Origin: Verrucomicrobiia bacterium
Lineage (GTDB): Bacteria > Verrucomicrobiota > Verrucomicrobiia > Limisphaerales > UBA1319
Direction of reading: 5' to 3'
DNA length: 64,000 nt
Assembly: GCA_963664225.1 (NCBI GenBank)
Contig: OY760937.1
Span: 800,001-864,000 of the forward strand
In this document: one piece after another, positions 3,712 through 54,000 of the stretch
Numbering within the stretch: position 1 is the first letter of the stretch
Layout of the letters: every line of letters starts with the position of its first letter
Notes under the pieces: model-generated
Seen by the model: only the letters and a program-made list of their open reading frames with translations
Told to the model about the DNA's origin: nothing
The model's database searches: none
Translations under genes and position numbers: made by a program

Positions 3712-3873
3712 CCCGAAGTCGGAAATAGGAACGGCCCATCTGACGCAATCATTCGGCCATCCATGGTTTGAAACCGGCTGTGGAGTATTGATTTGATACA
3801 CCCTCGCCGATTGCAAATCATGGCTGCCTCAAAGCATTGCATCATCCAAGCCCTTCTTATTTCGGATTTCGGG
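3712..3873. mobile_element. 162-bp MITE with IS1380-type inverted repeats (copy 1)
   Basis: Ends CCCGAAGTCGGAAATAG / CTTATTTCGGATTTCGGG; 5-bp TSD TTAAA (3707-3711; right copy = 3874 + 5850-5853, split by the intron); second copy at 28002-31675. Confidence 0.85.
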
Positions 3874-3874
3874 T

Positions 3875-5849
3875 GTGCGCCAGTGAAATTGGTAGCCTCG
3901 TGGGTGAAAGTCCCGCCGGTCGAATTAGACGGTTCACGACCGAAATGCAGCGTCCGGGACGAGGCCGTGAGGCCGAACCACAAGCGGGACGCTGAAAGAA
4001 CTGTCGGGTCGTAACGAAAGTAAACCTCATCAAATGAGCTCCGAAACCGAAATAACCGGTAAGCCGAGCCGCTACCCGAACGGCGAAGGCAGAAACGCGG
4101 CGTCATCAAATCGTCAAATGGGCGCTGTTGATTCCGGCGGAGTCAGCGAGGGCGACACGACAGGAAGGGAAACCAAGGTAAGCTGGGAGATCTCTGGAGG
4201 CGGGGCGATAAAGCCTCAACCGCCGGTGCAAGGAGGAACACCCTCCGAGGCCGCACGGGCAGCCAGAGAAGTCGGAGTCTTCCATAGTAGCGAAGAAGCT
4301 GGGGCGACCAAAACCCCGGCGGAGCCAAGGGAAGGCACTTGGATCGAAGCGAATCAAAACAGCGAGGGACAGGGAGATGGCCTTGAGGGAGTGGAAACAC
4401 TTTTTCAACGGATAACAACCCCGATAAAAGTTCAAAAGCTGCAGCGAGCGCTATATTGCAAAGCCAAGGCTGAGCCGAAGTATCGGTTTTACAGCCTCTA
4501 CGGAGAACTGCTGCGGAAGGACGTGCTGGAAACGGCAATGGCCTCCGTGGCGCACAACAATGGCGCGGCTGGGATCGACGGGCAGACATGCGACGTCTAT
4601 CTTGCCAGCGACGAAGCCTGGGACCAATGGCGGAACCAACTGCTGGAGGAGTTACGCACGAAGAAGTATCGGCCAAGCCCGGTGAAGCGTGTGTATATAC
4701 CAAAAGGAGACGGGAAGCTGCGACCCCTGGGCATCCCGACAGTGAAAGACCGGGTGGTGCAGACAGCGGTGGTGATTGTATTGCTGCCGATTCTGGAAGC
4801 CGATAGTCATCCGAACAGTTACGCCTATCATCCCAAACGCAATGCCCACCAAGCAATGGAGGCGATCAAGAAGGCTACGCTGACAGGACGCGTCGAAGTT
4901 ATAGACGCGGACTTAAGCGGGTATTTTGACAGCATTCCCCACAGGCGTTTGTTGCGCATAGTGGCCAAGCGGGTCAGCGATGGAACAATTCTCAAGCTGA
5001 TCGCAGGATGGCTGCGCGCGCCCGTGAATGAACCGCAAAGCGACACAGGGAAAGGCGGGACAAAGGGGGGGCAAGGTCAGAATCGACGGGGGACTCCGCA
5101 AGGCGGGGTTGTATCGCCGATTTTAGCCAATGCATACCTCAACCAGTTGGATTGGGAAGTCAACGAACGCTGCGAACTCAAACCCGTGATGGTGAGATAC
5201 GCGGATGATTTCGTGATACTCGGACAGCCGGGGCAGGGACGGGAACTGATGGAACGACTGGAACGATGGCTGAAGCAACGCGAGTTAGTGCTCAACGAGA
5301 AGAAGACCCGCTTGGTGGACCTCCGCCAGGATGGCATCAAATTCTTGGGATTCGCGCTAACAATGCGACAGGGGAAGGGGAAATGGAAATATCCGCATGT
5401 GGAACCCCATCCCAAGAGCCAGAAGAAGTTTCGAGACGGGATTCGGGAGAAACTCAACCGAAGCACGCTATGGCGTGATATCGGAGAGGTGATTCCCGAG
5501 CTCAACAAGAAACTCAAAGGTTGGAAGGGTTACTTTCACTACGGGAACAGCACCAAGGTGATGGGCCAGATGAACGAATACGTCAGCAGCAAGTTACAAC
5601 GATGGTTGTGGCGCAAACACGGATGTAGTCGGGCGCAATGGTCCACATACCCCAAGGAGGATCTCTATGAGCGTTATGGTTTATACCAAATGCCGGAATA
5701 TGCGGCATGGAAACGATGACGTCGAAGCGATGCAACGTATGATCCCCGGAGAGCCGGATGCGGGAAAACCGCCTGTCCGGTTCGATGAGGGGCGAAATGC
5801 GACGGTCATTGGCCACGGCCATTCAATCCGTCCATTTCGCCTACTCTAC
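3875..5849 (+). mobile_element. Group II intron, copy 1 (1975 nt)
   Basis: 5' GTGCG; domain V GAGCCGGATGCGGGAAAACCGCCTGTCCGGTTC (5751-5783); domain VI ending CTACTCTAC; boundaries confirmed by divergence from copy 2. Confidence 0.95.
4391..5719 (+). CDS. ltrA: Group II intron reverse transcriptase/maturase, no endonuclease domain
   Basis: RPLGIPTVKDR, DADLSGYFDSIPH, GTPQGGVVSP, RYADDF, FLGF, maturase GWKGYF. Start uncertain: GTG 4391 chosen because ATG 4034 lies in ribozyme domain I. Confidence 0.9.
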   Translation: METLFQRITTPIKVQKLQRALYCKAKAEPKYRFYSLYGELLRKDVLETAMASVAHNNGAAGIDGQTCDVYLASDEAWDQWRNQLLEELRTKKYRPSPVKRVYIPKGDGKLRPLGIPTVKDRVVQTAVVIVLLPILEADSHPNSYAYHPKRNAHQAMEAIKKATLTGRVEVIDADLSGYFDSIPHRRLLRIVAKRVSDGTILKLIAGWLRAPVNEPQSDTGKGGTKGGQGQNRRGTPQGGVVSPILANAYLNQLDWEVNERCELKPVMVRYADDFVILGQPGQGRELMERLERWLKQRELVLNEKKTRLVDLRQDGIKFLGFALTMRQGKGKWKYPHVEPHPKSQKKFRDGIREKLNRSTLWRDIGEVIPELNKKLKGWKGYFHYGNSTKVMGQMNEYVSSKLQRWLWRKHGCSRAQWSTYPKEDLYERYGLYQMPEYAAWKR

Positions 5850-25052: not shown

Positions 25053-25127
25053 GACCCTATGGTCTAGCGGTTAGGACACCACCCTTTCACGGTGGTAGCT
25101 CGGGTTCGATTCCCGATAGGGTCGCCA
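25053..25127 (+). tRNA. tRNA-Glu(TTC)
   Basis: Acceptor stem GACCCTA/TAGGGTC, anticodon arm CCACC-CTTTCAC-GGTGG, GTTCGATT, encoded CCA. Confidence 0.97.
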
Positions 25128-25469: not shown

Positions 25470-25546
25470 GCGCTCGTAGCTCAGTTGGATAGAGCAACGG
25501 ATTTCTAATCCGTTGGTCGTGGGTTCGAATCCCGCCGGGCGCACCA
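25470..25546 (+). tRNA. tRNA-Arg(TCT)
   Basis: GCGCTCG/CGGGCGC stem, ACGGA-TTTCTAA-TCCGT, GTTCGAATC, encoded CCA. Confidence 0.97.
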
Positions 25547-25604: not shown

Positions 25605-26117
25605 CTAGGGCAGCGCTTTGGCGGCGCTTAGGGAGGGCGGGGGTTCTGACGCGTGGTGACCAAAAAGTCGTTTTCTATTATGGAACAGGTAATAGCAAAT
25701 GAACATGTTGATCACGAGGATGCAGCCCACGATGATTGTAAACGCATGACTGAGGTTGAAGACTTCGATGGGGATGAAGAATGCGGATTCTCCGATTGCG
25801 AGCCAGCCAGCCCAACTGATGCGCAAGAGCAAGCCTGTTCCCTCGATTAAAGAGAACAGGCTGTAAATAAAAGTTCCCACCGCCACCCAATAGACATTGG
25901 TGGGCGTGACCTGGGCGAGTTTTGCCGCCAGGTGGCTGAAGAAAACGCTTTCAGGGTCCAAGTGAACGGCGCGAAGCGTCTGGTCCAGAGCGGCATGCAA
26001 GTCTTCGCCGGCCAGGCAATAAATGCCAATGGCCAGCGATAACAGCAGCAGGCCTTTGGCCAGTTTGAATGCAATGATGCCGTAAAAACCGGCAAGCCGC
26101 TTTGACGGACTGGACAT
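25605..26117 (-). CDS. DUF2127 family membrane protein
   Basis: IIAFKLAKG, EGTGL..W, FIPIEV; start overlaps the glyQS stop. Confidence 0.8.
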   Translation of the reverse strand: MSSPSKRLAGFYGIIAFKLAKGLLLLSLAIGIYCLAGEDLHAALDQTLRAVHLDPESVFFSHLAAKLAQVTPTNVYWVAVGTFIYSLFSLIEGTGLLLRISWAGWLAIGESAFFIPIEVFNLSHAFTIIVGCILVINMFICYYLFHNRKRLFGHHASEPPPSLSAAKALP

Positions 26118-27733
26118 CAACGAATCTTTTCCAACAGCATCGGCACCAGTTCGCTGATTTTGACCCGGGTTTGCTGCATTGAATCACGATCACGCAGGGT
26201 GACGGTGTCCAATAACTCTGGTTTTTCGCCGAGGGTGTCGAAGTCGATGGTGACGCCGAAAGGTGTTCCCGCCTCATCCTGTCGGCGGTAGCGACGGCCA
26301 ATGGCCCCGGCTTCGTCGTAGAAAACGGTCATGTGGGGCCGCAGTAAATCACGGACCTCCATGGCTTTTTTGACAATTTCAGGCCTGTTTTTGAGCAACG
26401 GAAACACGCCCACTTTGATGGGGGCCACGCGGGGATGAAATTTCATCACGACGCGGGTCTCGGATTTGCCTTTGTCGTCGGTGACGGTTTCTTCGTTATA
26501 CGCATGGCAGATCAGAGCGAGGACCAGACGATCGACTCCCGCGCTGGGTTCGATGACGTGCGGCAGGTAGCGGCTCTTGTCTTCTTCATCGAAGTATTCC
26601 ATCGATTTGCCGCTGAATTTCTGGTGCTGCGTGAGATCGAAGTTGCCGCGAGCGGCAATGCCTTCCAATTCCTGGGTGCCAAAGGGGAATTTGTAGAGAA
26701 TATCGACCGTGGCTTTTGCGTAATGGGCGAGTTCCTCTTTTTTCTGCCAATAAAAGTCGAGGCAATCCTGGTCCAGACCGATGCTTGCATACCATTTGAT
26801 GCGCTCATCGACCCAGTATTTGTGCCATTCCGACCAACCCCAATTGGGTTGCGGCTGGCCCGGTGTTACATCGGCTTCCGGGGCGGATTTAACGGCAATC
26901 TCGTCGGGCTTGATAAAGAATTCGAGCTCCATTTGCTCGAATTCACGCGAACGAAATGTGAAATTGCGGGGATTGATTTCGTTGCGGAACGCCTTGCCAA
27001 TCTGGCAGATGCCGAATGGAACCTTTTGACGAGAAACGTCGAGAACGTTCTTGAACTGGGCAAAAATAGCCTGGGCCGTTTCTGGCCGCAAAAAGGCGGT
27101 GTTGTCCGCGCTTTCAACGGGACCCACGAAGGTCTTGAACATGAGGTTAAACGGACGGGCCTCGGTCAGGAGACTGCCGTTTTCCGGGTTGAACCGGGTT
27201 GAATTGACCTCTTCCTCGGTTCGCTCCCCGAGAAGTTCCGGCGCAGTCAGACCCCGACCCAAATAGAATTGTTTGGCGATCTTACGTGCGTGTTCCGGGT
27301 GTTTTCCTGTGGCCACCAATACGGAGTAGGCTTCGGAACTGGCCTTGCCATTGCCTTCGTCTTTTGCGCCTGTAAAATGGTAAATGGTGCCGGATTGCGG
27401 TTCGATCTGGTCGGCGCGAAAGCGTTTTTTGGTGAGCAGGCAATCGACCATGGGATCGCTGAAGGTGGCGGTGTGACCACTGGCCTCCCAGATTTTGGGG
27501 TGCATGATAATGCTGGCGTCCAGACCCACAACGTCATCGCGCTGCTGGGTCATGCTGCGCCACCAACGATCTTTAACGTTGCGTTTTAGTTCGGCGCCGA
27601 GTGGGCCGTAATCCCAAAACCCGTTGATACCGCCGTAAATCTCCGACGATTGAAAAACAAAGCCCCGCCGTTTGCAGAGGGAAACGATTTTCTCCATCTG
27701 CTCATTCACTTTTGGCTCCTGCGCTTCAGACAT
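26117..27733 (-). CDS. glyQS: Glycine--tRNA ligase (alpha2 type)
   Basis: KRRGFVFQSSEIYGG..DYGPLG, LRPETAQ, GKAFRNEI, REFEQME, VIEPSAG, IGRRYRRQDE. Confidence 0.97.
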   Translation of the reverse strand: MSEAQEPKVNEQMEKIVSLCKRRGFVFQSSEIYGGINGFWDYGPLGAELKRNVKDRWWRSMTQQRDDVVGLDASIIMHPKIWEASGHTATFSDPMVDCLLTKKRFRADQIEPQSGTIYHFTGAKDEGNGKASSEAYSVLVATGKHPEHARKIAKQFYLGRGLTAPELLGERTEEEVNSTRFNPENGSLLTEARPFNLMFKTFVGPVESADNTAFLRPETAQAIFAQFKNVLDVSRQKVPFGICQIGKAFRNEINPRNFTFRSREFEQMELEFFIKPDEIAVKSAPEADVTPGQPQPNWGWSEWHKYWVDERIKWYASIGLDQDCLDFYWQKKEELAHYAKATVDILYKFPFGTQELEGIAARGNFDLTQHQKFSGKSMEYFDEEDKSRYLPHVIEPSAGVDRLVLALICHAYNEETVTDDKGKSETRVVMKFHPRVAPIKVGVFPLLKNRPEIVKKAMEVRDLLRPHMTVFYDEAGAIGRRYRRQDEAGTPFGVTIDFDTLGEKPELLDTVTLRDRDSMQQTRVKISELVPMLLEKIR

Positions 27734-28086
27734 AAGGGGATAGTTTTAGGGAAGCGACCGTTCATGTCAATAAGACACGGAAAAAATGGGAAGTGAAGGT
27801 TATAAACATGGATGGAAAGGATGGGGAAATGGGGAGAATGGATAAGGGCAGAATGGATAATGGACAACCGGGGTCCCGTCCTAAAATAGGTTGTCACTAA
27901 TGAGACAACAAAACAGTGTTCGAAGGGTGGGGATACGGTACAGTGAGTCGTTTAAAATGGCCGTGGTTCGGGAGCTGGAAGAGGGCGAAATGTCCTTTGA
28001 GCCCGAAATCCGAAATAGGAACGGCCCATCTGACGCAATCATTTGGCCATCCATGGTTTGAAACCGGCTGTGGAGTATTGATTTAA

Positions 28087-29618
28087 CCCGAACTCCGAAG
28101 TTAGGTCGGTTTTTTTAGGGAACCGCTAACCCCTCCGGTCATATTCCGCCCCCTCCGAAAGCTTGCCGGGCTTCCGGTGGCACCAACTTCGGCGACGCGC
28201 TTTTCAACCAGTTCAACGTGGTTTCTATCAACGGCTTGTGTTTAGCCAGTCCACCCCAGGCCGCCGAGAGCCTCACCACCACATCACGCCCCATCGTTCC
28301 CAAGAGGGCTCCCGCCAGAAAAACCGTCGTCCGCAATGTTCCTGGCTGGCGGTATGGCTGGGTTGGAGTGGTCTGATGCTGGTAAAGACTCAGCAGGTTG
28401 AATGTGAAGAGCACCGCCAGAAACGCCGACTCGGTGGCGAAAAACGATTTCAGGCAAAAACCGTTGGCAGCCAGATCATTCTTCAGCTCCTCGATCCGCT
28501 GCTCGATGGTGGCCCTTCCGTTGTAGTCCCTCCACAGTTCCAGCGCGCCTTCACTTCGGTTGGTGACGCACACTCGAAAGGTGTAACCGGGCACATCAAT
28601 GAGCTTGCGACCCAGAGCCTCCTTGTCTTCCCTGATCCGCTCCCGCAGCACCACGAATCGCCGGGCAGTGGACCAGCCAAAGAGTTGGGCTCTAAACTCC
28701 CCCACGGCATGATTTTCATCGATGGCTTTCCAGTTCTGGATTCCCACGCAATGGTATTTGATCGTGGAGGTCATGCGCGCCACCACAATGTAGGTTAATT
28801 TGCGCATTTCCAAAAACGTCACTAACGCCTCATCGAAGAACCCGCTGTCGGCACGCACGCACCGAATCCACGTTCCCTCGGGCAACAGGGCCAATGCCTC
28901 CTGCAAAAACGGCACCACCCCGCGCGCGGCTCCGGTGTTGCCGCTGCGCAACCATCCATGCAGGATAAACGGCGCTTCGGCCAGCACCGCCAGGAGCGGA
29001 TGATGGCTCTTGCGCCCCTTGCGGCGTGGATTGTACCCCTTGGCAGCCCCCTCCTGCGAACCCTCCCGGCAGAACACGGTCGAATCCAGATCCAACGAGA
29101 AGCCTGCCTTGGGGCAGGCCAGCAGATTGAGCAGCCATCGCCAGAGCGGTCGCCAGAACGCTTCGATGTGGCCCTGGCCAAAGTGCAGGAAGAAGTTGCG
29201 GATGGTGTCATCGCCCGGGAAACGTTCCATCCCCAGCATGGCGTGCAGAACATGATCGGCACGCAGCCACTGACAGTGGGCAAAGCGGCGTGCTCCCGCC
29301 ACCACAGATACGATAAAACTGGTCAGCGTATGGGCTAGAGGAATGGCATTAGGTGAAGTGGGCGCGGCAAACGGCAAGCACCGCTGCACCGCCTGCGCAT
29401 AGCCGATCTGACCCAAAAAGGTTATGAATGAAGCCAGACCGCCGAAGGGGGTTATGGCCTTGGGAGTCTCATCCAGATAGAGCTTGGCTTGGCCGAAAAG
29501 AGCGCTAATTTCGACTGGGGTCGTTTTGTGCGAGTCTGAAGCGGGCTTGTTTAGCATCAAACCCTATTGCCTCAGAAGGTTGCGCATTGCGACCTCTTTT
29601 TCTATCTCGGAGTTCGGG
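28087..29618 (-). mobile_element. IS1380-family insertion sequence
   Basis: IR CCCGAACTCCGA at both ends; TSD TTTAA (28082-28086; right copy 29619 + 31595-31598). Confidence 0.92.
28139..29557 (-). CDS. IS1380-family DDE transposase
   Basis: TPFGGL, LDLDST, GYNP, HHPL, LRSGN, VRADSGFF, YNGRATIEQRIEELK. Confidence 0.92.
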   Translation of the reverse strand: MLNKPASDSHKTTPVEISALFGQAKLYLDETPKAITPFGGLASFITFLGQIGYAQAVQRCLPFAAPTSPNAIPLAHTLTSFIVSVVAGARRFAHCQWLRADHVLHAMLGMERFPGDDTIRNFFLHFGQGHIEAFWRPLWRWLLNLLACPKAGFSLDLDSTVFCREGSQEGAAKGYNPRRKGRKSHHPLLAVLAEAPFILHGWLRSGNTGAARGVVPFLQEALALLPEGTWIRCVRADSGFFDEALVTFLEMRKLTYIVVARMTSTIKYHCVGIQNWKAIDENHAVGEFRAQLFGWSTARRFVVLRERIREDKEALGRKLIDVPGYTFRVCVTNRSEGALELWRDYNGRATIEQRIEELKNDLAANGFCLKSFFATESAFLAVLFTFNLLSLYQHQTTPTQPYRQPGTLRTTVFLAGALLGTMGRDVVVRLSAAWGGLAKHKPLIETTLNWLKSASPKLVPPEARQAFGGGGI

Positions 29619-29619
29619 T

Positions 29620-31594
29620 GTGCGCCAGTGAAATTGGTAGCCTCGTGGGTGAAAGTCCCGCCGGTCGAATTAGACGGTTCACGACCGAAATGCAGCGTCC
29701 GGGACGAGGCCGTGAGGCCGAACCACAAGCGGGACGCTGAAAGAACTGTCGGGTCGTAACGAAAGTAAACCTCATCAAATGAGCTCCGAAACCGAAATAA
29801 CCGGTAAGCCGAGCCGCTACCCGAACGGCGAAGGCAGAAACGCGGCGTCATCAAATCGTCAAATGGGCGCTGTTGATTCCGGCGGAGTCAGCGAGGGCGA
29901 CACGACAGGAAGGGAAACCAAGGTAAGCTGGGAGATCTCTGGAGGCGGGGCGATAAAGCCTCAACCGCCGGTGCAAGGAGGAACACCCTCCGAGGCCGCA
30001 CGGGCAGCCAGAGAAGTCGGAGTCTTCCATAGTAGCGAAGAAGCTGGGGCGACCAAAACCCCGGCGGAGCCAAGGGAAGGCACTTGGATCGAAGCGAATC
30101 AAAACAGCGAGGGACAGGGAGATGGCCTTGAGGGAGTGGAAACACTTTTTCAACGGATAACAACCCCGATAAAAGTTCAAAAGCTGCAGCGAGCGCTATA
30201 TTGCAAAGCCAAGGCTGAGCCGAAGTATCGGTTTTACAGCCTCTACGGAGAACTGCTGCGGAAGGACGTGCTGGAAACGGCAATGGCCTCCGTGGCGCAC
30301 AACAATGGCGCGGCTGGGATCGACGGGCAGACATGCGACGTCTATCTTGCCAGCGACGAAGCCTGGGACCAATGGCGGAACCAACTGCTGGAGGAGTTAC
30401 GCACGAAGAAGTATCGGCCAAGCCCGGTGAAGCGTGTGTATATACCAAAAGGAGACGGGAAGCTGCGACCCCTGGGCATCCCGACAGTGAAAGACCGGGT
30501 GGTGCAGACAGCGGTGGTGATTGTATTGCTGCCGATTCTGGAAGCCGATAGTCATCCGAACAGTTACGCCTATCATCCCAAACGCAATGCCCACCAAGCA
30601 ATGGAGGCGATCAAGAAGGCTACGCTGACAGGACGCGTCGAAGTTATAGACGCGGACTTAAGCGGGTATTTTGACAGCATTCCCCACAGGCGTTTGTTGC
30701 GCATAGTGGCCAAGCGGGTCAGCGATGGAACAATTCTCAAGCTGATCGCAGGATGGCTGCGCGCGCCCGTGAATGAACCGCAAAGCGACACAGGGAAAGG
30801 CGGGACAAAGGGGGGGCAAGGTCAGAATCGACGGGGGACTCCGCAAGGCGGGGTTGTATCGCCGATTTTAGCCAATGCATACCTCAACCAGTTGGATTGG
30901 GAAGTCAACGAACGCTGCGAACTCAAACCCGTGATGGTGAGATACGCGGATGATTTCGTGATACTCGGACAGCCGGGGCAGGGACGGGAACTGATGGAAC
31001 GACTGGAACGATGGCTGAAGCAACGCGAGTTAGTGCTCAACGAGAAGAAGACCCGCTTGGTGGACCTCCGCCAGGATGGCATCAAATTCTTGGGATTCGC
31101 GCTAACAATGCGACAGGGGAAGGGGAAATGGAAATATCCGCATGTGGAACCCCATCCCAAGAGCCAGAAGAAGTTTCGAGACGGGATTCGGGAGAAACTC
31201 AACCGAAGCACGCTATGGCGTGATATCGGAGAGGTGATTCCCGAGCTCAACAAGAAACTCAAAGGTTGGAAGGGTTACTTTCACTACGGGAACAGCACCA
31301 AGGTGATGGGCCAGATGAACGAATACGTCAGCAGCAAGTTACAACGATGGTTGTGGCGCAAACACGGATGTAGTCGGGCGCAATGGTCCACATACCCCAA
31401 GGAGGATCTCTATGAGCGTTATGGTTTATACCAAATGCCGGAATATGCGGCATGGAAACGATGACGTCGAAGCGATGCAACGTATGATCCCCGGAGAGCC
31501 GGATGCGGGAAAACCGCCTGTCCGGTTCGATGAGGGGCGAAATGCGACGGTCATTGGCCACGGCCATTCAATCCGTCCATTTCGCCTACTCTAC
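29620..31594 (+). mobile_element. Group II intron, copy 2
   Basis: Same length and ends as copy 1 (offset 25745); all translated internal ORFs identical. Confidence 0.95.
30136..31464 (+). CDS. ltrA: Group II intron reverse transcriptase/maturase
   Basis: Protein identical to copy 1 (YADD); start uncertain. Confidence 0.9.
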   Translation: METLFQRITTPIKVQKLQRALYCKAKAEPKYRFYSLYGELLRKDVLETAMASVAHNNGAAGIDGQTCDVYLASDEAWDQWRNQLLEELRTKKYRPSPVKRVYIPKGDGKLRPLGIPTVKDRVVQTAVVIVLLPILEADSHPNSYAYHPKRNAHQAMEAIKKATLTGRVEVIDADLSGYFDSIPHRRLLRIVAKRVSDGTILKLIAGWLRAPVNEPQSDTGKGGTKGGQGQNRRGTPQGGVVSPILANAYLNQLDWEVNERCELKPVMVRYADDFVILGQPGQGRELMERLERWLKQRELVLNEKKTRLVDLRQDGIKFLGFALTMRQGKGKWKYPHVEPHPKSQKKFRDGIREKLNRSTLWRDIGEVIPELNKKLKGWKGYFHYGNSTKVMGQMNEYVSSKLQRWLWRKHGCSRAQWSTYPKEDLYERYGLYQMPEYAAWKR

Positions 31595-32030
31595 TTAATA
31601 CACCTTCGCCGATTGCAAATCATGGCTGTCTCAAAGCATTGCATCGTCTTGACCATTCTTATTTCGGATTTCGGGTTGAGGCGATGCGGCGAAAGTACGG
31701 CATAAAGGGCACGGGCACCGTCCAAAAGTGGGCTCGCAAGTACGGCAGGGGCGATTTAGGAAAGGTCATACGCGTGGAAACACCTAAAGAATTCAATGAA
31801 CGGGATCAAATGAAGAAGCGAATCAAGGCTTTGGAGAAAGCGTTGGCCGATGCGCACATCGATCTGGCGATCGAGCGTGCCACCATCCAAGTGGCCTGCG
31901 AACGGGCGGGGATTAAGGATGTGGCGGAGTTCAAAAAAAAAGTGGCTGGGAAATAGCCCATTGTGCGGTCAGGGGAGGTTCGGCGGATCAGGAGGTGCCG
32001 GTCAAAGGGGTGTGTCGCCGACTGGGGATG

Positions 32031-33467
32031 GGGGCTGTAAAAATAATTGTGTAAGTGGCCTGAGAGAGATGAAAGGATTAACGACATGGCCATTACCGAT
32101 GAAGTGCTAAACGAACTGCTTAAAGATTATCAGAAGCCCGAAGATTTATTGGGCAAGGATGGGATCTTCAAGCAACTGCAGAAGCGGCTGCTGGAGAAGG
32201 CAATGGGAGCGGAGTTGACGGTGCATTTGGGTTACGACAAGCATGACCCGGCGGGCCGCAACTCGGGCAACTCGCGCAACGGCACCAGTCCCAAGACCCT
32301 CAAGGGAGAGTTTGGTCACCTGGAGCTGGCGACGCCCCGGGATCGCAATGGAACCTTTGAGCCGCTGATCGTGGCCAAGGGGCAACGCCGGTTCGAGGGA
32401 TTTGACCAAGCGATCCTCAGTCTGTATTCGCGTGGCATGACGACGCGGGAGATTGAAGGGCACCTGTTGGACATATACGGGGTGGAGGTGTCGCCGACTC
32501 TGGTCTCGCAAGTGACCGAGGCGGTGTGCGCCGATGTGAAGGTCTGGCAGGACCGACCACTGGAGGAAGTTTACCCCATTGTCTATTTTGATGCGCTCTG
32601 GGGCAAGGTGCGGCAGGACGGTCAGGTGGCCAAGGTGGCGGTGTATCTGGCGCTGGGGATCACGATGACCGGGCAGAAGGAGGTTCTGGGCATGTGGGCG
32701 GCTCACAGTGAGGGGGCCAAGTTTTGGCTGCATGTGCTGACGGAGCTTAAAAACCGGGGAGTAAAGGACATCTTTATTGGCTGCGTGGATGGGATTAAAG
32801 GCTTCCCTGAAGCGATGGAAACGGTCTTTCCGGCGACCCAGGTGCAGCTCTGCCTGGTGCACATGGTGCGTAATTCGCTCAGCTACGTGGGATGGAAGGA
32901 GCGCAAAGCGGTGGCCGCCGATTTGAAGGCGATTTATCGGGCGGCGACGGTGGCCCAGGCCGAGCAGGCGCTGGAGGCTTTTGCCCAAAAGTGGGACAAA
33001 AAATACCCATCGATCAGCAAGAGTTGGCGGGCGCACTGGCCGGAACTGATCACGTTTTTGAAGTATCCTGAAGAGATCCGCAAAGCCATTTATACGACCA
33101 ATGCGATTGAGTCGGTGAACCGATCGCTGCGTAAAATCACCAAGAATCGGGGCGTTTTTCCAAACGAGGAATCCCTGCTCAAACTCTATTATCTGGCGCT
33201 GGAACGGGCGGCCAAAAAGTGGACCATGCCCATCCACAATTGGGGCCAGGCGCTGAACCGATTTGCCATTGAATTTGGGGACCGGATGCCCCAGTTGGCT
33301 TGAGCCGCCATGAAAACTGGATACGCAAGCCCATTTAACCGCAGGGGGCGCGAGCTAAGGCTCAAAGCTCGCCCCCTGCTGGTTCTATCTCGCTGCGAAA
33401 ACGCAGGGAGTCATAACAACAAAAAACAAAACTAAAAAATCACTTACACAGTTTTCTTTACAAAACC
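32031..33467 (+). mobile_element. IS256-family insertion sequence
   Basis: Imperfect 27-bp IRs GG....GTAAA..AA.TGTGTAAGTG; 8-bp TSD TGGGGATG (32023-32030, 33468-33475). Confidence 0.95.
32086..33303 (+). CDS. IS256 (Mutator-type) transposase
   Basis: NSRNG, PRDRNGTFEP, YFDA, VDG.KGF, QLCLVH, IYTTNAIES. Confidence 0.95.
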   Translation: MAITDEVLNELLKDYQKPEDLLGKDGIFKQLQKRLLEKAMGAELTVHLGYDKHDPAGRNSGNSRNGTSPKTLKGEFGHLELATPRDRNGTFEPLIVAKGQRRFEGFDQAILSLYSRGMTTREIEGHLLDIYGVEVSPTLVSQVTEAVCADVKVWQDRPLEEVYPIVYFDALWGKVRQDGQVAKVAVYLALGITMTGQKEVLGMWAAHSEGAKFWLHVLTELKNRGVKDIFIGCVDGIKGFPEAMETVFPATQVQLCLVHMVRNSLSYVGWKERKAVAADLKAIYRAATVAQAEQALEAFAQKWDKKYPSISKSWRAHWPELITFLKYPEEIRKAIYTTNAIESVNRSLRKITKNRGVFPNEESLLKLYYLALERAAKKWTMPIHNWGQALNRFAIEFGDRMPQLA

Positions 33468-34489
33468 TGGGGATGAGCCGCCAGAACTTCTATGCGGGGC
33501 GCACGCGGCGGATGCGCAAGAAAGTGGAGGGCGACCTTGTGGCCGATTTAGTGCGTCAGGAGCGCAGGAAGCATCCGCGGATCGGGGCGCGAAAGCTCCA
33601 CAGGACGATCAAGCCAGCCCTGGAAAAGGCCGGAGTAAAAATGGGGCGGGACCGCCTGTTTGAAGAGTTGCGAGAGCGGGATTTGCTGGTGCCGCCGCTG
33701 CCCCGGCAATGACCCCAGACAACCCATTACAATCCCAGTTTGCCGGTGTTTCACAATGAGATCAAGGAACGGGAGGTGAAGCGGGCCAATGAGGTTTGGG
33801 TGGCGGATATGACCTATGTGCGGACCGACGAGGGTTTTTTATATGTGTCGCTGATCACGGATAAGTATTCGCGCAAGATCGTGGGTTTCCATGCCGATGA
33901 GACGCTGGAAACCAGGGGGACGCTTGAGGCGTTGGAGATGGCGCTGGCGGCACTGCCCAGGGGATTCAATCCGATCCATCATTCGGATCGTGGCTGTCAG
34001 TATGCCAGTCATGAGTATGTGGATCGGTTGAAGTTGGGCGGCCTGTCCATCAGCATGACGGAGGAGGATCATTGCGCGGAGAATGCGATGGCCGAACGGG
34101 TCAACGGCATCCTAAAGCAGGAGTATGGCATAGGGTATGGATTTAAGACCAAGGCGCTGGCGCGCAAAGTAATCAGTCAGGCTGTCAATCTCTACAATAC
34201 GCGCCGATTGCATACGGCATTGAATTACCAGGTGCCCGAGGCCGTTCACATCCGGGGAACCGTCGAGTATAACTAAGAAGCCATACCGGCCTGAGAGGGG
34301 AGGGTCCGCGCCACAGTGCCCCTTCGGGTCCACTACGGCATTGGCACTTCGTGCCAAAGCCTCCGTTCCCCCGAAGGGGCACTGCTCTCCTCCTGAAGGT
34401 GTGGGACAGTAGGAAGATTCCCTCCGACCGGAAACCGAAAGAAATAAGACTCAGGAAAAAGTGACAAATTTAAACCAGGACTTGACCGG

Positions 34490-36790
34490 AGATTTCGGGA
34501 GTCGCGGGAGGAATTGGGTGGTTTGGAAGTTGGATAAACATGGCGCTCCGCTGGAGCTGGGAGGAAATTGACAATGGGAAATCGGTTGGGTTTGGGGGTG
34601 CCGTTTGCTATAAACATGTCGCCCCGCTGGGGCTAGAAAACGCAGGTGAGGACAAGAATCTACGACCCCTGCCGGGGTCGGGTTCGAATGCGTGGGGATT
34701 CCGGGGGTGTCGGTCGCGGACGACCTCAACCACCCGGCTAATCGCTTGTATCCCTCCGGGATGGCTTTGATAAACATTTCGCCCCGCTGGGGCTAAGAAA
34801 CGCACGTGAGTACAGGACCGCCAAATGGACTGACTGGACTGACAATTGGCTGTGGATTTCAGGGCGTTTGGCTTTGATTCAACCCTTTCAGGGTAGGGGA
34901 TTCCTGGGGGGGCGATTACCCCGGGTAGGCCTCGGCGGTCAACCCGGGGCTGAGTGATTGCATCCCGTTCCGGGTTGCCGGTCAGGACGTTTTAGTAGGA
35001 GTGGCCGGCATAATGGTTCGCCCATGGTGGTTCGGTGTTGGACTCAGATGGACCATGAAAAGGGTGGGGGAATGCGGACATGGGTCTGTGAATATTAAAT
35101 GTTTCAATCAAGGCAGGGGAGTGTCTGAAATGGTTCTCGCCTCGTTTGTGTCCATTCAGGTTCTGCTGCGAAAGAGAAGACATGCGTCATTTGGCATCTA
35201 TAAACATGACGCTCCGATGGAGCTTGGGAATTGGTCGTGGGGGTGGCGATTGCTATAAACATGTCGCCCCGCTGGGGCTAAGAAACGCAGGTGAGGACAA
35301 GAATCTGCGACCCCTGCCGGGGTCGGGTTCGAATGCGTGGGGATTCCGGGGGTGTCGGTCGCGGACGACCTCAACCACCCGGCTAATCGCTTGTATCCCT
35401 CCGGGATGGCTTTGATAAACATGTCGTCCCGCTGGGGCTACGAAACGCAGGTGAGGACAGGACCGCCAAATGGACTGACTGGACTGACCATTGGCTGTGG
35501 ATTGCAGGGCGTATGGTTTTGATTCAACCCTTTCAGGGTAGGGAATTCCTGGGGGTCGATTACCCCGGGTAGGCCTTGGCGGCCAACCCGGGGCTGAGTG
35601 ATTGCAACCCGTTCCGGGTTGCCGGTGAGGAGGTTTTGGCAGGAGTGGCCGGCAAAAGGGTTCGCCCATAGTGGTTCGGTGTTGGACTCACGTGGACCAT
35701 GAAAAGGGTGGGTGAATGCGGACATGGGTCTGTGAATATTAAATGTTTCAATCAAGGCAGGGGAGTGTCTGAAATGGTTCTCGCCTCGTTTGTGTCCATT
35801 CAGGTTCTGCTGCGAAAGAGAAGACATGCGTCATTTGGCATCTATAAACATGACGCTCCGATGGAGCTTGGGAATTGGTCGTGGGGGTGGCGATTGCTAT
35901 AAACATGTCGCCCGCGCTGGGGCTGGGAGGAAATGGAAAATGGGGCGAAGGGGTTGGTCTGGGGGTTGGAATTGGTAGTGGGGGTGGCGTTTGCTATAAA
36001 CGTGGCGCTCCGCTGGGGTAAAGAAACGCAGGTGAGGACAAGAATCTGCGACCCCTGCCGGGGTCGGGTTCGATTGCGTGGGGATTCCGGGGGTGTCGGT
36101 CGCGGACGACCTCAACCACCCGGCTAATCGCTTGTATCCCTCCGGGATGGCGATGAGAAACATGGCGCTCCGCTGGGGCTGGGAGGAAATGGAAAATGGG
36201 GCGAAGGGGTTGGTCTGGGGGTGCCGCTTGCTATAAACATGTCGTCCCGCTGGGGCTAGAAAACGCAGGTGAGGACAAGAATCTACGACCCCTGCCGGGG
36301 TCGGATTCGAATGCGTGGGGATTCCGGGGGTGTCGGTCGCGGACGACCTCAACCACCCGGCTAATCGCTTGTATCCCTCCGGGATGGCGATGAGAAACAT
36401 GGCGCCCCGCTGGAGTTGGGAGGAAATGGAAAATGGTCAATTGACCGGAAGATCGCGGGAAGAATTGGGCGGTTTGGAAATTGGATAAACATGGTGCTCC
36501 GCTGGAGCTGGGAATTGGTCAGGGGGTGGCGCTTGCTATAAACATGTCGCCCCGCTGGGGCTTGGGTTTTGTCGTTGTTCGATTTCTATAAAAATGTCGC
36601 CCCGCTGGGGTAAAGAAACGCAGGTGAGGACAAGAATCTACGACCCCTGCCGGGGTCGGGTTCGATTGCGTGGGGATTCCGGGGGTGTCGGTCGCGGACG
36701 ACCTCAACCACCCGGCTAATCGCTTGTATCCCTCCGGGATGGCTTTGATAAACATGTCGCCTCGCTGGGACTGGGAGGAAATGGAAAATG
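34490..36790. repeat. Non-coding REP-like palindrome array
   Basis: About 16 same-orientation copies of ATAAACATGTCGCCCCGCTGGGGCT-like units; five ~160-bp modules with CGACCCCTGCCGGGGTCG and ATCCCTCCGGGAT; ~645-bp tandem duplication. Confidence 0.9.
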
Positions 36791-36968
36791 GACATCTGGG
36801 GAAGAGCAATTTACATGGATGGGAAGGATGAACAGGATTTTTGACCGCGGATAGGACGGCGTTTTAAAGGGGTTTTCAGTTTGGGGAAGTTTCTGTCCTG
36901 AATCCACGAATCCGGGCGGTTGCAGGAAACGCTTGCGGAGTGGTGCGGGCTGGGGAATAGTCGCGGGC

Positions 36969-52464: not shown

Positions 52465-52534
52465 GAAGAGGGCGGAGGAAAATTGATAATGGATAATTGA
52501 CAATTGGGTCCCGTCCTAAAATAGGTTGTCCCTA

Positions 52535-52912
52535 ATGAGACAACAAAACAGTGTTCGAAGGGTGGGGATACGGTACAGTGAGTCGTTTAAAATGGCTGTG
52601 GTTCGGGAGCTGGAAGAGGGCGAAATGTCCTTTGAGGCGATGCGGCGAAAGTACGGCATAAAGGGCACGGGCACCGTCCAAAAGTGGGCTCGCAAGTACG
52701 GCAGGGGCGATTTAGGAAAGGTCATACGCGTGGAAACACCTAAAGAATTCAATGAACGGGATCAAATGAAGAAGCGAATCAAGGCTTTGGAGAAAGCGTT
52801 GGCCGATGCGCACATCGATCTGGCGATCGAGCGTGCCACCATCCAAGTGGCCTGCGAACGGGCGGGGATTAAGGATGTGGCGGAGTTCAAAAAAAAAGTG
52901 GCTGGGAAATAG
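52535..52912 (+). CDS. IS3 transposase OrfA (HTH)
   Basis: RYSESFKMAVV..YGI..TVQKW. Confidence 0.9.
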   Translation: MRQQNSVRRVGIRYSESFKMAVVRELEEGEMSFEAMRRKYGIKGTGTVQKWARKYGRGDLGKVIRVETPKEFNERDQMKKRIKALEKALADAHIDLAIERATIQVACERAGIKDVAEFKKKVAGK

Positions 52913-52914
52913 CC
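52889..52914 (+). promoter_or_regulatory. Putative -1 programmed frameshift signal
   Basis: A9G run followed by GGCTG-GGAAA-TAGCC hairpin; the -1 frame is open into orfB. Confidence 0.7.
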
Positions 52915-52950
52915 CATTGTGCGGTCAGGGGAGGTTCGGCGGATCAGGAG

Positions 52951-53787
52951 GTGCCGGTCAAAGGGGTGTGTCGCCGACTGGGGATGAGCCGCCAGAACTT
53001 CTATGCGGGGCGCACGCGGCGGATGCGCAAGAAAGTGGAGGGCGACCTTGTGGCGGATTTAGTGCGTCAGGAGCGCAGGAAGCATCCGCGGATCGGGGCG
53101 CGAAAGCTCCACAGGACGATCAAGCCAGCCCTGGAAAAGGCCGGAGTAAAAATGGGGCGGGACCGCCTGTTTGAAGAGTTGCGAGAGCGGGATTTGCTGG
53201 TGCCGCCGCTGCCCCGGCAATGGCCCCAGACAACCCATTACAATCCCAGTTTGCCGGTGTTTCACAATGAGATCAAGGAACGGGAGGTGAAGCGGGCCAA
53301 TGAGGTTTGGGTGGCGGATATGACCTATGTGCGGACCGACGAGGGTTTTTTATATGTGTCGCTGATCACGGATAAGTATTCGCGCAAGATCGTGGGTTTC
53401 CATGCCGATGAGACGCTGGAAACCAGGGGGACGCTTGAGGCGTTGGAGATGGCGCTGGCGGCACTGCCCAGGGGATTCAATCCGATCCATCATTCGGATC
53501 GTGGCTGTCAGTATGCCAGTCATGAGTATGTGGATCGGTTGAAGTTGGGCGGCCTGTCCATCAGCATGACGGAGGAGGATCATTGCGCGGAGAATGCGAT
53601 GGCCGAACGGGTCAACGGCATCCTAAAGCAGGAGTATGGCATAGGGTATGGATTTAAGACCAAGGCGCTGGCGCGCAAAGTAATCAGTCAGGCTGTCAAT
53701 CTCTACAATACGCGCCGATTGCATACGGCATTGAATTACCAGGTGCCCGAGGCCGTTCACATCCGGGGAACCGTCGAGTATAACTAA
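52951..53787 (+). CDS. IS3 transposase OrfB (DDE/rve)
   Basis: WVADMTY, HHSDRGCQY, NAMAERVNGILKQE. Confidence 0.93.
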   Translation: MPVKGVCRRLGMSRQNFYAGRTRRMRKKVEGDLVADLVRQERRKHPRIGARKLHRTIKPALEKAGVKMGRDRLFEELRERDLLVPPLPRQWPQTTHYNPSLPVFHNEIKEREVKRANEVWVADMTYVRTDEGFLYVSLITDKYSRKIVGFHADETLETRGTLEALEMALAALPRGFNPIHHSDRGCQYASHEYVDRLKLGGLSISMTEEDHCAENAMAERVNGILKQEYGIGYGFKTKALARKVISQAVNLYNTRRLHTALNYQVPEAVHIRGTVEYN

Positions 53788-54000
53788 GAAGCCATACCGG
53801 CCTGAGAGGGGAGGGTCCGCGCCACAGTGCCCCTTCGGGTCCACTACGGCATTGGCACTTCGTGCCAAAGCCTCCGTTCCCCCGAAGGGGCACTGCTCTC
53901 CTCCTGAAGGTGTGGGACAGTAGGAAGATTCCCTCCGACCGGAAACCGAAAGAAATAAGACTCAGGAAAAAGTGACAAATTTAAACCAGGACTTGACCGG

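Follow-up and report, generated by a model that had tools for sequence, protein, structure and literature searches.

Target preferences as the probable origin of a nest of five mobile elements, including an intron at the end of an IS1380 element, in a Verrucomicrobiia genome

We describe a nest of five mobile elements which occupies positions 27872-34487 (6616 bp) of a 64,000-nucleotide stretch of the genome of a Verrucomicrobiia bacterium (assembly GCA_963664225.1, contig OY760937.1, positions 800,001-864,000), referred to here as the window. The nest is a real stack: an insertion sequence (IS) of the IS3 family holds a miniature inverted-repeat transposable element (MITE), the MITE holds an IS1380-family element, a group II intron stands at the end of the IS1380 element, and an IS256-family element lies separately in the IS3. 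It was probably built by the target preferences of its members, with an endonuclease-less intron homing to the IS1380 end followed by T|TTAA. The anatomy of the nest, the containment order, the site rule and strand rule of the intron and the pairing of its exon-binding site 1 (EBS1) were read directly from the DNA.

Anatomy of the nest

The anatomy was worked out by self-BLAST of the window, direct reading of the junctions and whole-genome BLAST of each element; the genome is available as one contig of 5.78 Mb without N. The original prediction, made from the letters of the window, had named five elements between 27872 and 34487, and each of these elements and junctions was recovered to the base.

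From the left, the nest opens with nucleotides 1-130 of the IS3 (27872-28001, plus strand), which carry the left inverted repeat and the start of orfA at 98.5% identity to the reference copy and whose final 5 nt (TTGAG, 27997-28001) are the left copy of the target site duplication (TSD) of the MITE. The left half of the MITE (28002-28086, plus strand, 85 nt) has an end, CCCGAAATCCGAAAT, similar to the IS1380 end, and its last 5 nt (TTTAA, 28082-28086) are the left TSD copy of the IS1380-family element. The latter is 1532 bp long and lies on the minus strand (28087-29618), as does its transposase open reading frame (ORF) at 28139-29560. A single T at 29619 follows, being at once the first base of the right TTTAA copy and the last base of the 5′ exon of the intron (intron-binding site 1, IBS1). 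The group II intron (29620-31594, plus strand, 1975 bp, GTGCG...CTAC) has its intron-encoded protein (IEP) in the ORF at 29779-31464 and lies between this T and the remaining TTAA of the IS1380 TSD (31595-31598), after which comes the right half of the MITE (31599-31675, plus strand). The middle part of the IS3 (31676-32030, plus strand, IS3 nt 126-480, 100% identity over 355 nt) opens with the right TTGAG copy (31676-31680) and closes with the left copy of the IS256 TSD, TGGGGATG (32023-32030). The IS256-family element is 1437 bp long (32031-33467, plus strand, transposase ORF 32047-33303), and the right part of the IS3 (33468-34487, plus strand, IS3 nt 473-1492, 99.8% identity) opens with the right copy of TGGGGATG (33468-33475) and includes the integrase core (rve) of orfB together with the right inverted repeat. 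The lengths of IS3, MITE, IS1380, intron and IS256 together with the TSDs of 5, 5 and 8 bp account for the interval exactly (1492+5+162+5+1532+1975+8+1437 = 6616 = 34487-27872+1).

Two controls for empty sites had been proposed within the window. The intact IS3 copy at 52507-53998 (plus strand, orfA 52526-52912, orfB 52951-53787 in the -1 frame) serves this purpose: the IS3 pieces of the nest align with it and together restore the 1492 nt. The MITE at 3712-3873 (plus strand, TSD TTAAA) is the most divergent copy (92-94% to other intact MITEs); at the IS1380 site it has TTTGA, and an intron copy of its own (3875-5849) lies 1 nt past its right end. When IS1380, intron and one TSD copy were taken out in silico from the nest, the rebuilt 162-nt MITE was 100% identical to 3 of the 18 intact MITEs of the genome.

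These reconstitutions bear upon the possibility of an assembly artefact, in which identical repeats (19 introns, 5 IS1380 copies) would have been misjoined and the nest would not be one molecule. Such a misjoin would not restore matching TSDs at four levels, the exact 162-nt MITE and the exact 1492-nt IS3, and the genome is a single gapless contig; the matched TSD pairs at four levels and the two exact reconstitutions argue strongly against a wrong join. The read-level check was made with Logan contigs assembled from short reads of four runs (two organisms), and here some points lie on the side of an artefact. Each repeat edge interrupts the contigs, and among the listed pieces there is none which spans the nest; one contig crosses 27871/27872, reaching only 29 nt into the IS3, which is below the 31-nt rule; and the single-base differences of the nest IS3 at 27962, 33544 and 33712 are unseen in the contigs, which may drop rare variants. 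Contig joints at 27996>31676, 28082>31595 and 32021>33467 are those which the intact IS3 and MITE copies at other loci of this genome would give and hence are not intermediate alleles. The short-read contigs neither support nor contradict the assembly, and an artefact is regarded as highly improbable.

Target site and strand rule of the intron

The intron is present in the genome in 19 copies, every one of which is inserted 1 nt past the end sequence TCGGA[G/T]TTCGGG. The 5′ exon reads ...TCGGA[G/T]TTCGGGT and the 3′ exon begins with TAAA or TTAA in 19/19 copies. Thirteen copies stand at MITE ends (either end), four at IS1380 ends (either end) and two in unique DNA which has the same 13-mer. 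At the IS1380 and MITE ends the TSD is thereby split, and this was observed in all four IS1380-associated cases, so the splitting of the TSD is the rule and not an accident of the nest. Among the 22 IS1380 and MITE sites with exact TSDs, 20 have TTAAA or TTTAA, the first base of which is the T of the intron 5′ exon. As two copies lie in unique DNA with the same 13-mer, neither a hairpin nor a whole element is needed by the intron; hairpin recognition in the style of class IIC was ruled out on the basis of these two and of the four copies at IS1380 ends.

The last 7 nt of the 5′ exon are complementary to intron nt 200-206 (ACCCGAA). The same columns were compared with four related introns of about 77% nucleotide identity, taken from metagenome-assembled genomes of other phyla, which have different 5′ exons, and they are exactly complementary to their own exon in 5/5 introns (this one included); nt 200-206 are accordingly assigned as EBS1. 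Introns of this degree of identity were seen in contigs of metagenome-assembled genomes (L001-L005) labelled Rhodocyclaceae, Planctomycetales, Hyphomicrobiaceae, Akkermansia and Verrucomicrobia. In each of them EBS1 is retargeted to a different 5′ exon, and this points to a wide horizontal spread. Two candidates for EBS2 were considered: CTCCGAAA (about nt 164-171) shows conservation between introns whose exons differ and is therefore probably structural, and CCGAAAT (nt 173-179) lies in a variable stretch and gave no pairing in the related introns.

The 13-mer occurs at 51 sites of the genome, of which 46 also have a T[TA]AA 3′ exon. For the strand count, the terminus was set at 1.3 Mb, where the GC skew turns, and the origin at 2.984 Mb. 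Sites on the favourable strand are filled in 19/24 cases and those on the other strand in 0/22 (Fisher p ~1e-8), and no site with another 3′ exon is filled (0/5). The right end of the nest MITE itself (TGAG) is one of these five non-consensus sites, which explains why the intron is found at the IS1380 end rather than at the MITE end. There is no element with both ends occupied by the intron.

On the circular map the orientations of the 19 introns form two blocks, plus at 2.99-5.61 and 0.05-0.95 Mb and minus at 1.66-2.19 Mb. Two blocks or fewer would arise by chance with a probability of 6.6e-4, and the orientation switches near the GC-skew turn (1.3-1.4 Mb) and near dnaA (2990059-2991450). The two-block pattern and the counts of 19/24 against 0/22 fit a bias towards the lagging-strand template, with origin and terminus placed from dnaA and GC skew only. 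As its IEP is devoid of an endonuclease domain, the intron is likely to use the lagging-strand template at the replication fork for reverse splicing, by analogy with known introns of this type.

The replichores are apparently very unequal. dnaA lies at 2.99 Mb. In the sector which runs from about 3.6 Mb across the ends of the contig as far as about 1.3 Mb the GC skew is positive, and in the remaining sector it is flat to slightly negative; the intron orientations track the same sectors.

Insertion of IS1380 at MITE centres and a second nest

The central TTTAA of a MITE is the site of two of the five IS1380 copies. The two MITEs split in this manner belong to different subfamilies, with 97.5% identity between them and 100% between each and the intact members of its own subfamily, and hence the two IS1380 insertions are independent events and not a composite that moved. 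With 7029 TTWAA sites and 21 MITEs in the genome, the chance of two central IS1380 insertions is about 9e-5 by our own estimate, and IS1380 appears to have a real preference for the MITE centre. Across the 22 IS1380 and MITE sites no extended target motif was found beyond TTWAA.

A second nest of the same architecture lies outside the window at 2984573-2988394 of the contig, about 2 kb from dnaA. There, an IS3-like 5′ remnant (about 145 nt, 84-88% to the IS3) is split by a MITE at TTTAA, the MITE is split at its central TTTAA by IS1380, and the intron follows the end of IS1380 at a distance of 1 nt. In a third MITE (264554/266580) the centre is interrupted by another element, 1858 bp long (264642-266499), which has GCACTTTACCCC ends and six copies at 99.8-100% identity and sits 7 bp from the IS1380 site in the MITE.

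The nest had earlier been described as a mobile-element sink. Read as a neutral process, this means that a disrupted IS3 is a harmless landing pad on which insertions pile up by chance and survive without cost, no target preference being involved. Such a process would give scattered positions, whereas the positions observed are identical to the base: the intron is at a defined 13-mer in 19/19 copies and on one strand only, two MITEs from different subfamilies were hit by IS1380 at one and the same 5-bp site, and the three-level architecture recurs at 2.98 Mb. The nest does lie within an ORF-poor repeat tract of 2.5 kb, no preference for a site can be recognised for IS256, whose four 8-bp TSDs are different, the TSD of the nest MITE is off-consensus, and survival bias surely contributes to the pattern that is observed. 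On balance the sink is the weaker description and a purely neutral one is unlikely, target preference giving the better account of the site- and strand-specific intron and of the repeated use of one TTTAA by IS1380.

Order and age of the insertions

The order of events had been called fully resolvable. By containment the IS3 came first, followed in turn by MITE, IS1380 and intron. IS256 is constrained only to be later than IS3, with no rank relative to MITE, IS1380 and intron, so that the order is not fully resolvable. The inner elements are later than the outer ones because each is flanked by a duplication of a sequence which is single-copy in the intact outer element, and the intron came after IS1380 because its target (the IS1380 end with the first TSD base) arises only through the insertion of IS1380.

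The claim that all the insertions are recent agrees with the identities among copies within the genome. By whole-genome BLAST the five IS1380 copies are identical, as are all 19 intron copies; the nest IS256 has 99.1-99.8% identity to its three other copies, and for the IS3 pieces in the nest the identity to the reference copy is 98.5-100%. The complete match of the rebuilt MITE to three intact copies agrees with this.

The containment order would differ from the order of local events if composites which were already nested had moved as units, either MITE::IS1380 into the IS3 or the whole IS3 nest in trans. This could be imagined since the MITE and IS1380 ends are alike (17/23 terminal bases by our own count), so that one transposase could serve either pair, while five other IS3 copies could supply transposase for the larger unit; a cut-and-paste move, moreover, leaves no donor copy. 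There is, on the other side, no IS3::MITE junction among the five other IS3 copies, the only other MITE::IS1380 has a MITE of the different subfamily described above, and the splitting of the TSD by the intron in all four IS1380-associated cases implies that the intron was never carried along. Movement as composites is thus quite improbable, and we infer that every insertion event took place at this locus.

Proposed mechanism and points that weigh against it

According to the mechanism favoured here, in which target preferences built the nest, the IS3 copy which lies upstream of glyQS, at a distance of 138 bp and within a repeat tract poor in ORFs, was entered in its orfA by a 162-bp MITE with IS1380-type ends. 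IS1380, which by the similarity of ends is the likely autonomous partner of the MITE, then inserted into the TTTAA at the exact MITE centre. This insertion created the 'IS1380 end + T|TTAA' that is the homing site of the intron: the EBS1 of the intron RNA (ACCCGAA) pairs with the six terminal bases of the transposon and the first base of the target duplication. Single-stranded DNA at the replication fork is the probable substrate for reverse splicing of the intron. IS256 entered orfB independently.

A stronger form of this reading would be a chain in which each insertion makes the next landing site: the palindromic MITE centre would be preferred by IS1380, and transposition of IS1380 or MITE into TTWAA would complete two intron homing sites just outside the transposon end. 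We put this forward tentatively, as a possibility that falls a little short of an even chance. If it is true, the intron can track a transposon family without ever inactivating the transposon.

Several observations count against the account given here. The TSD of the nest MITE (TTGAG) departs from the TTAAA/TTTAA of most MITEs, and for the insertion of the IS3 itself no TSD and no empty site were found in support. The preference of IS1380 for the MITE centre is based on two events. As regards the strand rule, the origin for the count was chosen after seeing the data; if dnaA itself is taken as the origin, the copy at 2.986 Mb falls on the wrong strand, which gives counts of 18/24 against 1/22, and a scan for DnaA boxes of the E. 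coli type gave no origin. Five favourable consensus sites are without intron, so that the site is necessary and not sufficient. The pairing partner of EBS2 found no confirmation by covariation among the related introns.

Family assignments

All family calls were judged against curated profile cut-offs. In the IS3, orfB scores 222 bits with NF033516 (cut-off 160), orfA matches the N-terminal part and an rve domain is present. The transposase is in two frames as in the IS3 family, orfA with a helix-turn-helix and orfB with DDE/rve, and the frames at 52526 and 52951 differ by -1; the inverted repeats GGTCCCGTCC... and ...GGACTTGACC were found. IS3-family elements make short TSDs of 3-5 bp; none was recognisable at any of the 5 loci in the genome.

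The IS1380 transposase scores 227 bits with NF033539 (cut-off 180). The ends of this element are CCCGAACTCCGA.../...TCGGAGTTCGGG and a TSD of 5 bp (TTAAA or TTTAA) flanks 5/5 copies, in agreement with the IS1380 family. The IS256 transposase, of the Mutator type, belongs to its family at 426 bits with NF033543 (cut-off 150) and E = 5.6e-123 with PF00872, and an 8-bp TSD, different each time, flanks 4/4 copies.

The MITE has the features of an IS1380-type derivative: it is 162 nt long, without an ORF, and present as 18 intact and 3 split copies plus fragments. An exact 5-bp TSD was found for 17/21 MITEs, being TTAAA or TTTAA in 15 of the 17, and the MITE and IS1380 ends have the motif CCCGAA.TC.GAA in common.

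The intron is classed with mobile bacterial group II introns, by Rfam RF02005 at 54.9 bits (cut-off 49) and RF00029 at 49.3 bits (cut-off 40) and, for its reverse transcriptase/maturase, by TIGR04416 at 357 bits (cut-off 300). The IEP contains RVT_1 and GIIM domains only and its ORF stops 25 aa past GIIM, leaving no endonuclease domain, a feature also of RmInt1 and RmInt2.

Genomic setting

The nest had been placed about 140 bp upstream of an essential glyQS. The gap between the nest and the start codon (27733) is 138 bp, and the essentiality of the gene is plausible, being suggested by its single copy (one match in its own genome) and by the fact that the glyQ alpha-subunit family (PF02091) was not found in the genome. 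glyQS (26117-27733, minus strand, divergent from the nest) encodes a dimeric glycine--tRNA ligase of 538 aa with 616 bits to NF003211 (cut-off 312), and two tRNA genes are seen downstream of it at 25053-25124 and 25470-25543 of the window. A promoter scan of 27500-28200 gave 0 sites; a TTGACA-N16-TAAAAC seen by eye about 12 nt upstream of the glyQS ATG fails the criteria of that scan. For a T-box or other leader upstream of glyQS, no Rfam match was obtained at the gathering threshold or at E <= 1.

The 138 bp which separate the start of glyQS from the left end of the IS3 (27734-27871) are rich in purines, contain GGATAA/GGACAA repeats and belong to a dispersed repeat landscape. To the right of the nest an ORF-poor repeat array extends over 34488-36950, whose repeat family is found at 41 genome loci, some of them arrays of 2-4 kb, and has no Rfam match. 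The repeat units (34488-36950, 27780-27871) show boxes like ATAAACATG.CGC.CCGCTGG.GC and a GGTTCGAAT-like motif.

Repeats of GGACAAT, TGACAAT or GGATAAT lie directly left of every IS3 locus (window 27842-27871 and 52477-52506; contig 4120202-4120231, 5017476-5017505 and 5531813-5531842). Such repeats at the left flank, together with the lack of a recognisable TSD, suggest a targeted or unusual mode of insertion for the IS3. A head-to-tail IS3 dimer was also seen at 4120232-4123201 of the contig, where the first copy is joined, at its right end, directly to nt 15 of the second.

An empty site was looked for in three relatives; their glyQS DNA is 73-76% identical and has no upstream synteny, so they hold no comparable site. 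Among 40 relatives the intron gave fragments or distant matches only, in 11 of them, and it was not found in the same-genus genome, these being drafts in which repeats are often unassembled. With the same limitation of draft genomes, a relative of IS1380 (85% identical) was present in 1 of the 20 relatives searched and the MITE in 0/20.

Relation to known systems and value of the findings

Nested IS elements are familiar in bacterial genomes, where containment reveals the order of insertion whenever one IS lies inside another and the TSDs are intact. The present case differs from an ordinary nest in that the intron step is determined by sequence, the IS1380 step is probably so too, and the architecture is found twice in one genome.

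The nearest known system is RmInt2 of Sinorhizobium meliloti GR4. It is reported to have identical copies within the inverted repeats of ISRm17, a bias towards the lagging-strand template and two sites per IS on opposite replication strands (PMC4615759), and to that extent the principle of an intron homing to IS inverted repeats is already published. RmInt2 and this intron are alike in the endonuclease-less IEP, in the identity of all copies and in a target formed by a terminal inverted repeat with two sites per element on opposite strands. They would further share a lagging-strand-template bias (for which origin and terminus are deduced here from dnaA and GC skew) and the tolerance of a weak EBS2/IBS2 pairing (PMC4615759). 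Unlike RmInt2 as described there, this intron lies 1 nt outside the element and inside the target duplication, so that the transposon end stays intact; a complete homing site arises only once a transposon has entered TTWAA; and most of its targets (13/19) are non-autonomous MITEs. Its IEP is also distant, with at most 42% identity to any IEP in the plasmid collection.

RmInt1 colonises ISRm2011-2, is without an endonuclease domain and reverse-splices into single-stranded DNA at the fork, according to PMC1802570 and PMC8914252. It shares with this intron the colonisation of IS elements and the endonuclease-less protein, and the fork reverse splicing suggested here is drawn by analogy with it; its target, in the same sources, is an internal site of the IS and not an end (PMC1802570, PMC8914252).

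Literature searches for group II introns with IS1380, or with MITE and retrohoming, gave nothing relevant by title or abstract.

The findings may be of use in the following respects. A striking nest of several levels need not reflect random accumulation at a safe location, as simple target rules can yield nests repeatedly. The intron is a clean natural example of homing guided by base pairing to a transposon end under a strict strand rule, with built-in controls, since each element offers one site per strand. The genome is thereby a convenient system for the study of replication-coupled retrohoming outside the rhizobia, and the orientations of the intron could mark the direction of replication independently in a genome with apparently very unequal replichores.

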